DNA of 7,222 nucleotides from a virus (Duplodnaviria > Heunggongvirae > Uroviricota > Caudoviricetes): positions 1 to 7,222 of the IMG/VR virus record IMGVR_UViG_2582580934_000004; one strand, written 5' to 3'. A program made the translations under genes and the position numbers. Below, piece after piece: positions 700-6,710 of this stretch (the first letter of the stretch is position 1; each line of letters begins with the position of its first letter). A model generated the notes under the pieces. That model made no database searches, was not told where the DNA came from, and was given only the letters and a program-made list of their open reading frames with translations.

Positions 700-1089
700 A
701 TGATTGACGCTCATGACTTCACAAGATGGGTGCGCACACAGGACACCCGTCTGGCTCCCGTTCTTCAGGGATTATTTGATCTCTACATCCGTGGTCGTGA
801 CAACAGAGCACGCACCACAAAACCGGAGAATGCAGACACCCTTTATTTCACAGTAGACGACTGCTACCGCGTGGACTTCACACCACACGGGCTGGCGTTG
901 CACTGCCTGACACCACACGGCGAATCACTACTGGCGTATTACGACTCCCCGGCCTCCGTATTTGCGGCAATGCTGGCGCATCGCACTGCTGGCGGGTGTG
1001 CCTCGCTGAGTGAATACACCGCTGAATTTGACCGCCTTTCCGCCATAACCGCCTTTCCGCCCTCTTCTCGCAGGAGTGGCAGCGCGTGA
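700..1089 (+). CDS. Hypothetical protein (129 aa) immediately upstream of the replication gene
   Basis: ATG at 700 with aagag 8 nt upstream; stop at 1087-1089, 14 nt before the gpA ATG at 1103. The 3' end contains a 14-bp direct repeat (see 1031-1064). Confidence 0.45.
   Translation: MIDAHDFTRWVRTQDTRLAPVLQGLFDLYIRGRDNRARTTKPENADTLYFTVDDCYRVDFTPHGLALHCLTPHGESLLAYYDSPASVFAAMLAHRTAGGCASLSEYTAEFDRLSAITAFPPSSRRSGSA
1031..1064 (+). repeat. Direct repeat accgcctttccgcc x2 with a 17-bp period (14/17 identity between the two 17-bp units)
   Basis: Exact 14-mer at 1031-1044 and 1048-1061, separated by ata. Lies in the last codons of ORF 700-1089. Confidence 0.85.
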
Positions 1090-1471
1090 CGGGATACCAG
1101 CCATGAGTGCGTTTGCATGGAGCTGGAATGAACCACGACCAGCTATTGATCCGGCCAGATTTACGGAGCGCAGGCAGGAAACTGAAACCGACCTGCAACG
1201 CGCCATCCGTTACTACCTTGAGGCGGACAAAAGGGCACAGGAAGAACAGGAAGCGAAGGAAGAAGCCTTTTTCGCACAATCCGCCATGGGTAAAAAACTC
1301 ATGGCATCCCTTGAGGAAGCCGGACAGCGTGAAAAGCTGGCTCAGAGCATCATCAGTAAGCGCCGGGCAACAGAACAAGACCCGGTAGCCCGTGCCTTTG
1401 CCACACTGAAGGCGCTTCCCGTTTATCTGCGAGAACCTCTGAGCCGCCACCTCTCTTTCCTGCGCAAAAAA

Positions 1472-1523
1472 CAGGAAGCCGATCGCCGGAAAGGAAGCAG
1501 GAAGCCGATCGTCAGAAAGGCAA
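1472..1523 (+). repeat. Imperfect tandem duplication, 2 x 26 bp (22/26 identical)
   Basis: caggaagccgatcg is exact at 1472-1485 and 1498-1511. Deleting one 26-bp unit joins gpA frame 2 to frame 1, giving ...LRKKQEADRQKGKKSWQAERY... Confidence 0.85.
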
Positions 1524-2895: not shown

Positions 2896-2927
2896 CTCGC
2901 TGCCGCTGATTCTTGCTGCCGCTGATG
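2896..2927 (+). repeat. Imperfect tandem duplication, 2 x 16 bp (14/16 identical)
   Basis: gctgccgctgat is exact at 2899-2910 and 2915-2926. Deleting one unit joins frame 1 to frame 2, giving ...DAVLAAADAGCFATYIEKQ... Confidence 0.85.
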
Positions 2928-3239: not shown

Positions 3240-3297
3240 ACAACAACGGGACAGAACAGCCGGAAGAAACAACAACGGGACAGAACAGCCGAAAGAA
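3240..3297 (+). repeat. Imperfect tandem duplication, 2 x 29 bp (28/29 identical)
   Basis: acaacaacgggacagaacagccg at 3240-3262 and 3269-3291. Deleting one unit joins gpA frame 2 to frame 1. Confidence 0.85.
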
Positions 3298-3940: not shown

Positions 3941-4060
3941 GTGGAAACAAAAAACAGACAGAAACGGGATTCACAAATCCCGTAAATGAGCAAAAAACGC
4001 GCCGCGATATATGAAGCGCGCATAAAACAGGCAAAAACGGGATTTCAGAATCCCGTAAAC
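3941..4060 (+). promoter_or_regulatory. parC-like region: two related ~40-bp units, each with a 20-bp hairpin palindrome, directly upstream of the parM-like gene
   Basis: acgggatt-caca-aatcccgt at 3964-3983 and acgggatt-tcag-aatcccgt at 4037-4056 (perfect 8-bp arms, 73 bp apart), each preceded by an aaaacag..aaa motif. The first lies inside the last codons of the gpA frame. AAGGA RBS at 4078-4082. Confidence 0.4.
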
Positions 4061-4090
4061 GATTAATTAATCAACATAAGGAAAAGCGAC

Positions 4091-5073
4091 ATGAAAATTT
4101 GTATCGACGACGGCTCCACCAACATCAAGCTGGCATGGACTGAGAACGGCGAACGCCGCAACGCCATCAGCCCGAACAGCTTCAAGTCGGAATGGTCTGC
4201 GCCGTTCGGTGGTACGCAGCCCGCGAACTACATGCTTGATGGCGTGCGCTATGGTTTTGATCCGGTCAGCGATCGCTTTGTCCAGACGACCGACACGCAA
4301 TACCAGTACAGCGATGTGAATGTCATTGCCATTCATCACGCGCTGGTCAAATCAGGCATCACGCCACAGGAGGTGGATGTGGTTGTCACCCTGCCACTGA
4401 GCGAGTATTTCGACACAAACGCACAGCCGGACATGGCCAACATCAGCCGCAAAAAAGCGAACGTATCAACCGCAAAAAAGCGAACGTTATGCGCCCGGTG
4501 GAGTACCAGAACGGCGAAGCATTCACTATCCGTAACGTACGGGTTATGCCTGAATCCATTCCGGCTGGCTTTAAAGCACTGGCTGACATGAGTCCGTTTG
4601 AATCCCTGCTGATTGTGGATTTGGGCGGAACCACGCTGGATGTGGCAAAGGTTCAGGGGCAACTGGCAGGTATCAGCCAGGTGTTTTGCGATCCACACGT
4701 AGGCGTTTCTCTGATGGCCAATGCCGTACTGTCGGTGATGGCCACTAACGGTATGCGCACCAGTCACCACATCGCCAATACCATTATCGAACATCGCCAT
4801 GATGAAGCCTGGCTGCGCCAGCACATCCACAATGACGCGCATTACGACAGCCTGATGGCGGTTATTCGTGAAAAGGAAGAAACACTGAAACAACGAGTGA
4901 TCCGCGCGCTGGCGGGTTTTTCGGGTTACGGGCGGGTGATGGTTGTCGGTGGCGGGGCGGAGATTGTGGCACCCGCTATCCGCGAAGCCTGCGGAGTTAA
5001 TGCGACTTTCATCGCGGACGGGGTGCCACAGTTTGCTCTGGTTAATGGGCTGTACGCAATGGACAAGGAGTAA
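4091..5073 (+). pseudogene. parM: ParM/StbA-like actin-family segregation ATPase, split by one frameshift
   Basis: Translation matches plasmid R1 ParM at recalled conserved blocks: ICIDDGSTNIKLAW, ISPNSFK, YSDVNVIAIHHAL, RKKANV, VMPESIPAG, LIVDLGGTTLD, VMVVGGGAEI, FALVNGLYAMDKE. Frame 2 (4091 to about 4464) switches to frame 1 (about 4465-5073) at a 23-bp tandem duplication. Without the duplication the product is 319 aa, about the size of R1 ParM. Confidence 0.8.
4442..4487 (+). repeat. Imperfect tandem duplication, 2 x 23 bp (22/23 identical)
   Basis: atcagccgcaaaaaagcgaacgt / atcaaccgcaaaaaagcgaacgt. Deleting one unit gives ...ANISRKKANVMRPVEYQNGEAFTIRNVRVMPESIP..., colinear with ParM. Confidence 0.9.
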
Positions 5074-5077
5074 ACCA

Positions 5078-5389
5078 ATGACGACACCAACCAGACGGAT
5101 AAGTTTCTATCTGAAGCCCGTCGCCGTCAAGAACGAAGGCGAAGCATGCGCCTGGCTGGACAGCCTTACACCAGAAGCCCGCAAAAGCGGCCAACGTGTG
5201 GCTTTTCTGGCCGGGCTGGCACTTCTGAAAATGAATCCGGCAGAGGCTTACCGACTGGCTGCATGGGCTGACGATGAGGCGTTATCAGTGACACAAACCA
5301 GGACAGAACGCCCCGCGTCACAGCCAGTACCAACCACACAGATAACCAGTCGGATGGCCGGAAATATCAGGGCGTTATTTCCCGAATAA
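5078..5389 (+). CDS. parR: ParR-like centromere-binding adaptor (103 aa)
   Basis: ATG at 5078 preceded by AAGGAG at 5065-5070, starting 4 nt after the parM stop (TAA 5071-5073). RRISFYLKP....RVAFLAGLALL resembles the N-terminal DNA-binding region of R1 ParR (recalled). The ORF track extends this frame to ATG 4943 inside parM, which is unlikely to be the real start. Confidence 0.6.
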   Translation: MTTPTRRISFYLKPVAVKNEGEACAWLDSLTPEARKSGQRVAFLAGLALLKMNPAEAYRLAAWADDEALSVTQTRTERPASQPVPTTQITSRMAGNIRALFPE

Positions 5390-5394
5390 CACAA

Positions 5395-5418
5395 CATCAG
5401 GGCGCATCCGCCCTGATG
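5395..5418 (+). promoter_or_regulatory. Inverted repeat with 10-bp arms (catcagggcg / cgccctgatg) between parR and the next gene; operator or weak terminator
   Basis: Perfect 10-bp arms around a 4-nt loop. The core ATCAGGGCG also occurs as a direct copy at 5366-5374. Followed by actttaat, which is only weakly U-rich. Confidence 0.35.
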
Positions 5419-5452: not shown

Positions 5453-5785
5453 ATGCAACACATTGACAGAGAAAAAGCGCAGCGACTGATTGAGCGGATG
5501 GAAGCGCTGGCGAAAGAAGAAAATGTCAACATCCAAAAAATAGCTGAATGTGGCCAGATAGTTCTTCGTCGTGAAAAAGACCTCAAACAACTGATGTCTG
5601 GCGAAACCAGCAAAACATGGACTTCAGGCGAGGAGACGATTTATTGCAGCTTCTGCAATAAATCTCAGTACGAAGTCACAAAGGTGATTGCCGGACCGTC
5701 TGTTTGCATCTGCAATGAGTGCGTGGATTTGTGCAATGAAATTATCAGGAGAGAAGTGACAGACAAAAAGGGAAAAAACGCATGA
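5453..5785 (+). CDS. Small protein (110 aa) with a C-terminal ClpX-type C4 zinc-finger (ClpX N-domain-like) and an unrelated ~60-aa N-terminal region
   Basis: ATG at 5453 with aaggggga RBS at 5441-5448. Residues [39 protein letters not shown] closely resemble the E. coli ClpX zinc-binding domain (recalled as [40 protein letters not shown]), including all four Cys. No AAA+ domain follows. Confidence 0.75.
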
Positions 5786-6160: not shown

Positions 6161-6190
6161 TGCACAATAGTGCACAAATTTGCACAATTT
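6161..6190. repeat. Three helically phased TGCACAA repeats (10-bp period) followed by a T-run
   Basis: TGCACAA at 6161-6167, 6171-6177 and 6181-6187; a fourth copy at 6253-6259. Confidence 0.8.
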
Positions 6191-6249: not shown

Positions 6250-6310
6250 GCGTGCACAAAAAAACGCGCTTTTTCTGCGCGCAGGTGACGGGGGAACAGC
6301 CCGCGTTTCA

Positions 6311-6318
6311 GGGGGGGG
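6311..6318. repeat. Homopolymeric G8 tract adjacent to a small hairpin (gggaa-tagcg-ttccc)
   Basis: Eight consecutive G at 6311-6318 in non-coding DNA; gggaa (6316-6320) pairs with ttccc (6326-6330). Confidence 0.85.
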
Positions 6319-6586: not shown

Positions 6587-6636
6587 GCGAAGCAGCAGAC
6601 AAGCGAAGCGCGTCAGGATGTGGGCTGGGTGTCCAG

Positions 6637-6710
6637 CAGTGCATAAGGGTTAAAGCGGATCACCTCTATCTAACAGTGCGTAAGGGTTAAAGCGGATCAC
6701 CTCTTCGCCA
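6637..6710. repeat. Imperfect tandem duplication with a 37-bp period across the 3' end of the portal gene
   Basis: cagtgcataagggttaaagcggatcacctct (6637-6667) against cagtgcgtaagggttaaagcggatcacctct (6674-6704), 30/31 identical. The - strand stop codon (6650-6652) lies inside the first copy. Confidence 0.85.

Follow-up and report, generated by a model that had tools for sequence, protein, structure and literature searches.

A 23-bp tandem duplication that breaks parM in a P88-like prophage contig is probably an assembly artefact composed of two natural alleles

The window, the whole 7,222-nt stretch of viral DNA that was analysed here, carries a parM gene whose reading frame is broken by a 23-bp tandem duplication. 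The initial annotation had read this duplication as a biological inactivation of parM. This reading is probably wrong, since the two 23-nt copies correspond to the two natural alleles of the site. Based on comparisons with related sequences, we conclude that the duplication is very probably an assembly artefact, namely a small-scale heterotype false duplication, in which two versions of the same prophage would have been written in tandem. The window was found to be identical to AYJZ01000063.1 (7,222 nt), which belongs to the draft WGS assembly GCA_000511465.1. As it matches this record throughout, the window represents one entire short draft contig, and a sequence that was altered after deposition can be dismissed.

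The 23-bp duplication reported for positions 4442–4487 is indeed present there, with 22 of the 23 positions identical. The two copies are arranged head-to-tail on the plus strand and a G/A transition is their sole difference. Copy 1 (4442..4464; ATCAGCCGCAAAAAAGCGAACGT) harbours the G allele, which encodes Ser118, while copy 2 (4465..4487; ATCAACCGCAAAAAAGCGAACGT) harbours the A allele, encoding Asn118. At the junction between the two units, GCGAACGT is directly followed by ATCAACCGC. Tandem Repeats Finder (TRF) described the repeat with a period of 23, 2.0 copies and a score of 85, and the pair was also recovered in a repeat search (family D5). For a contig of 7.2 kb and 50 periods, we estimated the chance expectation of such a 23-nt match at about 4e-7. 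The period-23 match stops exactly at the unit borders, and the repeat is therefore not flanked by microhomology. When the window was aligned to the intact prophage of E. coli NCTC9022, copy 1 was gapped out and copy 2 was the unit that aligned.

The parM gene, encoding an actin-like type II partition ATPase, extends over 4091..5073 on the plus strand. As written, its first ORF (4091–4591) encodes 166 aa, in which about 125 native residues precede 41 that are out of frame, and the truncation after about 125 residues that had been proposed is thus borne out. The remainder is found in a downstream C-terminal ORF (4489–5073, 194 aa), in which a gene was called at 4546–5073 (175 aa). Deletion of either unit restored a single 960-nt ORF of 319 aa, as had also been predicted. 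The repaired 319-aa protein matched StbA_N (PF06406, 1.8e-82, 275 bits with a cut-off of 24.6) and the ParM C-terminal domain (PF21523, 2e-68, 230 bits with a cut-off of 27.4), two domains that sit in separate ORFs as written. Together with a full-length match to the structure of R1 ParM (1mwk_A; E = 9.2e-93, query residues 2–316 aligned to residues 2–318 of the chain), both domains identify the product as a true ParM, in line with its first assignment. The actin-fold phosphate and adenosine motifs of the R1 ParM structures (PDB 1MWK/1MWM and others), IDDGSTNIK, DLGGTTLD and GGGAE, are conserved in the repaired protein. Moreover, its segment NI(N/S)RKKANV, which includes the variable residue, aligns in single copy with NIERKKANF of R1.

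The databases contain the repaired protein with one of the two alleles. If copy 1 is kept, the resulting Ser-allele ParM is the same as an intact 319-aa protein on record in other E. coli. For the Asn-allele ParM no exact protein was found on record. For the truncated 166-aa product, AYJZ01000063.1 is the sole contig on record. Judged from the sequence, the real DNA probably encodes an intact 319-aa ParM, an actin-like filament-forming ATPase of a parMR-type cassette.

The initial annotation had also described a lesion of the same type in gpA, and three such duplications were found in this gene. To place them, we made a global alignment of the window with the NCTC9022 prophage, which showed 97.8% identity in aligned columns (2.2% divergence). 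Six extra tandem units in the window explain most of the length difference between the two sequences. Three of these are the gpA duplications, all on the plus strand, with units of 26 nt (1469..1520, copies differing at three sites), 16 nt (2896..2927) and 29 nt (3240..3297, also reported by TRF). The 23-nt pair in parM is the fourth. Outside gpA and parM there is one duplication of a 17-nt unit in the 129-aa ORF upstream of gpA (1030..1063, plus strand) and one of a 37-nt unit at the 3′ end of the portal gene (6631..6704, minus strand), the copies of which differ at four sites. No unit length is divisible by three, and all six pairs are imperfect. Upon removal of one copy of each, gpA (946 aa), ParM (319 aa), the upstream ORF (129 aa) and the C-terminus of the portal protein were all restored. 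As all genes reach the length of the reference annotation in this way, no other frame lesion is present on the contig.

Apart from the six units, we found no signs of decay on the contig: no stop codons, no single-base frameshifts and no IS elements. The codon changes relative to the NCTC9022 prophage were mostly synonymous, with synonymous to non-synonymous counts of 15:3 for parM and 67:22 for gpA. In gpA we also observed two compensating 1-nt indels relative to this prophage (a base missing at 1596 and an extra one at 1598), by which the frame is kept. The paired copies, on the other hand, differ at 13 of 148 positions (8.8%), a proportion roughly fourfold that between the contig and the NCTC9022 prophage (2.2%). 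These two values cannot be reconciled with recent duplications in otherwise intact genes.

Next we looked at the positions at which the copies differ in 83 related loci, comprising 80 IMG/VR loci that encode ParM relatives, each with an uninterrupted 957-nt parM match, and three annotated loci. None of the six duplications was present in any of the 83 loci. However, 11 of the 13 copy differences were found as natural alleles with the same bases at the homologous sites. The exact 23-mer of parM with the G allele (copy 1) occurs in single copy in 5 of the 83 loci and that with the A allele (copy 2) in 72. Counted by alignment column, 5 loci have G at this site and 78 have A. For the 26-nt unit, both three-site haplotypes occur in relatives (33 and 10 loci, respectively), and all four copy differences of the 37-nt unit are natural polymorphisms. 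The internal copy differences of the 16-, 17- and 29-nt units are natural alleles as well. The two remaining differences, G at 1030 and T at 2911, were not seen among the relatives sampled. Window-wide, natural alleles cover 10% of the possible changes and 20% of the transitions, and at p = 0.2 the probability that at least 11 of 13 differences are natural alleles is approximately 1e-6. The copies thus represent natural alleles at all six sites, and these sites are the only frame lesions, which points to an assembler having strung haplotypes together rather than to six independent mutations.

Furthermore, we searched for the parM junction in other sequences. No exact match was found in genome_contigs, viral_contigs or metagenome_contigs. 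When 5,426 complete E. coli genomes were searched with a 106-nt query from around the duplication, the best matches listed covered 83 nt of the record, in two pieces. At least 80% of a parM-parR query covering positions 4000–5400 is present in 1,278 complete E. coli genomes. The query measures 1,401 nt, as opposed to 1,378 nt of record in these genomes, which corresponds to one unit fewer. The comparison with ParM homologues, which the initial annotation had suggested as a check, showed a single copy in 1,278 E. coli genomes and in 83 of the 83 loci. The contigs encoding the exact Ser-allele ParM have about 97–98% DNA identity to the window and carry different cargo downstream of parR, and are for these reasons not from the same strain. 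A sequence that is otherwise identical to the window but lacks the duplications was not found among the searched sequences, in which no relative exceeded about 98% identity. We also checked whether the best-matching relative changes along the contig. It does switch between the duplications, but this mosaic test was uninformative, because P88-like prophages are mosaic anyway and switching at the junctions does not discriminate between explanations.

These data bear directly on the possibility that parM is a genuine pseudogene, in which a 23-bp slippage duplication arose in a decaying prophage and acquired a point mutation later on, while the other five duplications arose independently. The deposited sequence does carry the lesion and its frame is broken, and among frameshift mutations, short tandem duplications are nothing unusual. 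In addition, the six units are all non-multiples of three, and every large gene of the contig is affected. Nevertheless, we consider a pseudogene unlikely. At 11 of 13 sites, linked haplotypes included, the later mutations would have had to arrive at a natural allele again (P of about 1e-6). Not a single pair of copies is identical, and their divergence exceeds that from the relatives (8.8% compared to 2.2%). Other signs of decay are absent, substitutions are mostly synonymous and the unit borders show no microhomology. Finally, neither the three contig collections nor over 1,200 related prophages contain the duplication.

The origin of the contig fits an assembly artefact better. The window corresponds to the early part of an E. 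coli prophage of the P88 type (Peduoviridae, Xuanwuvirus). It encodes an isrK-like RNA and a C4 antisense RNA, followed by the genes for a derepression protein, the 129-aa ORF and the gpA-type replication endonuclease. Downstream of gpA we found parM, parR, a gene for a ClpX zinc-finger protein, a hypothetical ORF and, on the minus strand, the portal gene, of which only the 3′ part is included. The same gene order is found in Escherichia phage P88 (NC_026014) and P88-like E. coli prophages, running from the derepression protein through a hypothetical protein, the gpA-like replication endonuclease, ParM and the partition protein to the ClpX zinc-finger protein, a hypothetical protein and the portal gene on the opposite strand. 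The nucleotide identity of the window to these relatives is 96–98%. In contrast to the window, they are single-copy at all six duplication sites and their genes are intact. Among the 5,426 complete E. coli genomes, 1,782 matched some part of the window and 416 matched at least 80% of it. The left end of the contig is located close to the end of a small upstream ORF and its right end lies within the portal gene. Both ends are inside the prophage and not at its boundaries, which is the pattern expected when a repeated segment assembles apart from its diverged flanks.

We infer that the assembler produced the duplications from two templates. In the culture, the early region of a P88-like prophage would have been present in two almost identical versions, derived either from two co-resident prophages or from a mixed population, and roughly a dozen positions over 7.2 kb would have distinguished them. 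During assembly, both would then have been collapsed into a single short contig. Wherever variants clustered, overlapping ends that disagreed at a SNP would have been left unmerged and written consecutively, and the outcome at each site would be allele 1 plus allele 2 in tandem. We suspect that the responsible software step was the handling of such unmerged overlapping contig ends disagreeing at a SNP. A fixed-k de Bruijn bubble was considered as well, but was rejected: it predicts units of 2k-1 with a central SNP, whereas the observed units measure 16–37 nt and have off-centre SNPs. The presence of two similar templates in one genome is not unusual, as co-resident P88-like prophages are common (1,451 parM places in 1,303 E. 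coli genomes). Among the loci fetched here, four IMG genomes each supplied two. What also counts against an artefact is that the pairs of co-resident prophages compared in this analysis are 95–98% identical, as opposed to the approximately 99.8% implied here.

False duplication of allelic sequence is a documented class of assembly error (PMC9516828, PMC7794651), and heterotype false duplication has been described for heterozygous genomes (Ko et al. 2022, PMC9516828; Howe et al. 2021, PMC7794651). As in the contig studied here, both allelic versions of one locus are incorporated into the same linear assembly, true polymorphisms are all that separates the copies, and a gene appears to be disrupted or duplicated. 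The published cases are mostly on the kilobase scale and come from heterozygous diploid eukaryotes, while the units of this bacterial draft contig are 16–37 nt long and directly tandem. Moreover, the haplotypes involved here would be paralogous prophage copies or members of a mixed culture, unlike the diploid alleles of the published cases.

Two co-resident prophages could also have given rise to real duplications, if template switching or aberrant recombination between near-identical copies had joined one allele from each. This would account for the presence of both natural alleles in each duplication, and co-resident P88-like prophages do exist. If true, it would represent a previously undescribed mutational signature of interaction between prophages, and recurrent template switching would have knocked out gpA, parM and the portal gene together. 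However, it demands six independent events within 7.2 kb, each exactly bracketing a difference between the templates, while nothing else is rearranged, and we know of no precedent for such micro-duplication events between prophages. The contig is short and isolated, like a collapsed repeat, and failure of the assembler at heterozygous sites explains the data without new biology. We therefore regard real duplications of this origin as very improbable. A functional arrangement, either a programmed frameshift or a phase-variable ParM switch by gain and loss of the 23-nt unit, can practically be dismissed: a repeat whose unit length is not divisible by three could, in principle, switch the frame, but there are only two copies and these are non-identical, a single copy is invariably found in the 83 loci and the 1,278 genomes without variation in copy number, unrelated genes on the contig carry the same type of lesion, and neither a slippery site nor a conserved structure supports recoding.

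The parM gene belongs to a parMR cassette of a kind that is already annotated in P88-like integrated prophages of many genomes. It is directly followed by a small parR/stbB-like partner gene (5078..5389, plus strand, 103 aa; Plasmid_stab_B, PF10784, E = 2e-23), similar to the type II parMRC system of R1. In relatives this partner is annotated as a plasmid partitioning/stability family protein. The R1 system is located on a plasmid, whereas parM of the window is part of an integrated P2-like prophage (Peduoviridae, Xuanwuvirus P88-type). Just upstream of parM we found two 42-nt direct repeats (3948–3989 and 4021–4062), which are 81% identical, lie 73 nt apart and extend across the end of gpA and the leader of parM. 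Each repeat contains the palindrome ACGGGATT-N4-AATCCCGT, and both of these 8-N4-8 palindromes were also flagged on the minus strand by a scan for terminator-like patterns. Of the 84 loci that were scanned, 61 contain this palindrome in one or two copies. The scanned set included the window itself (L004), and the count for independent loci is thus 60 of 83. The parC site of R1 consists of ten iterons, compared to the two palindrome-bearing repeats of the window. The region 3948–4062 is a candidate parC/ParR-binding region or operator.

Several other features of the window were observed outside the duplicated sites. Upstream of the derepression-protein gene, isrK Hfq-binding RNA (126–200, 64 bits) and C4 antisense RNA (236–340, 74 bits) were both detected on the plus strand above the gathering score of Rfam, and they constitute an immunity RNA module of the P1/P4 type. 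A stretch of 17 nt at 296–312, which is missing in the NCTC9022 prophage, falls within the C4 match. The ClpX C4-type zinc-finger ORF (5453–5785, plus strand, 110 aa; PF06689, 2.9e-16) has the zinc finger as its only part recognisable by Pfam, which found no AAA+ domain, and its product might be a decoy or an adaptor for host ClpX. In other prophages with an identical ParM, a 174-aa ORF together with an Ead/Ea22 gene takes the place of this gene and the next ORF. The intergenic stretch preceding the portal gene contains three occurrences of the motif TGCACAA, at a period of about 10 nt (6161–6188). A run of eight G at 6304–6311 has one G more than in the NCTC9022 prophage; either natural variation or an error in homopolymer length could explain this extra base.

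At first sight, the contig suggests a prophage that lost its replication, partition and portal genes to a single, unusual type of lesion. Instead, these lesions were probably created by the assembly at sites where two prophage copies differ. Findings of gpA or portal gene inactivation on this contig should accordingly be interpreted in the same way as that of parM. The allele test used here, which asks whether tandem copies are the two natural variants of their site, is a simple means of recognising such artefacts without reads, and its use would help draft genomes to avoid false pseudogene calls. The main value of this case is one of caution.
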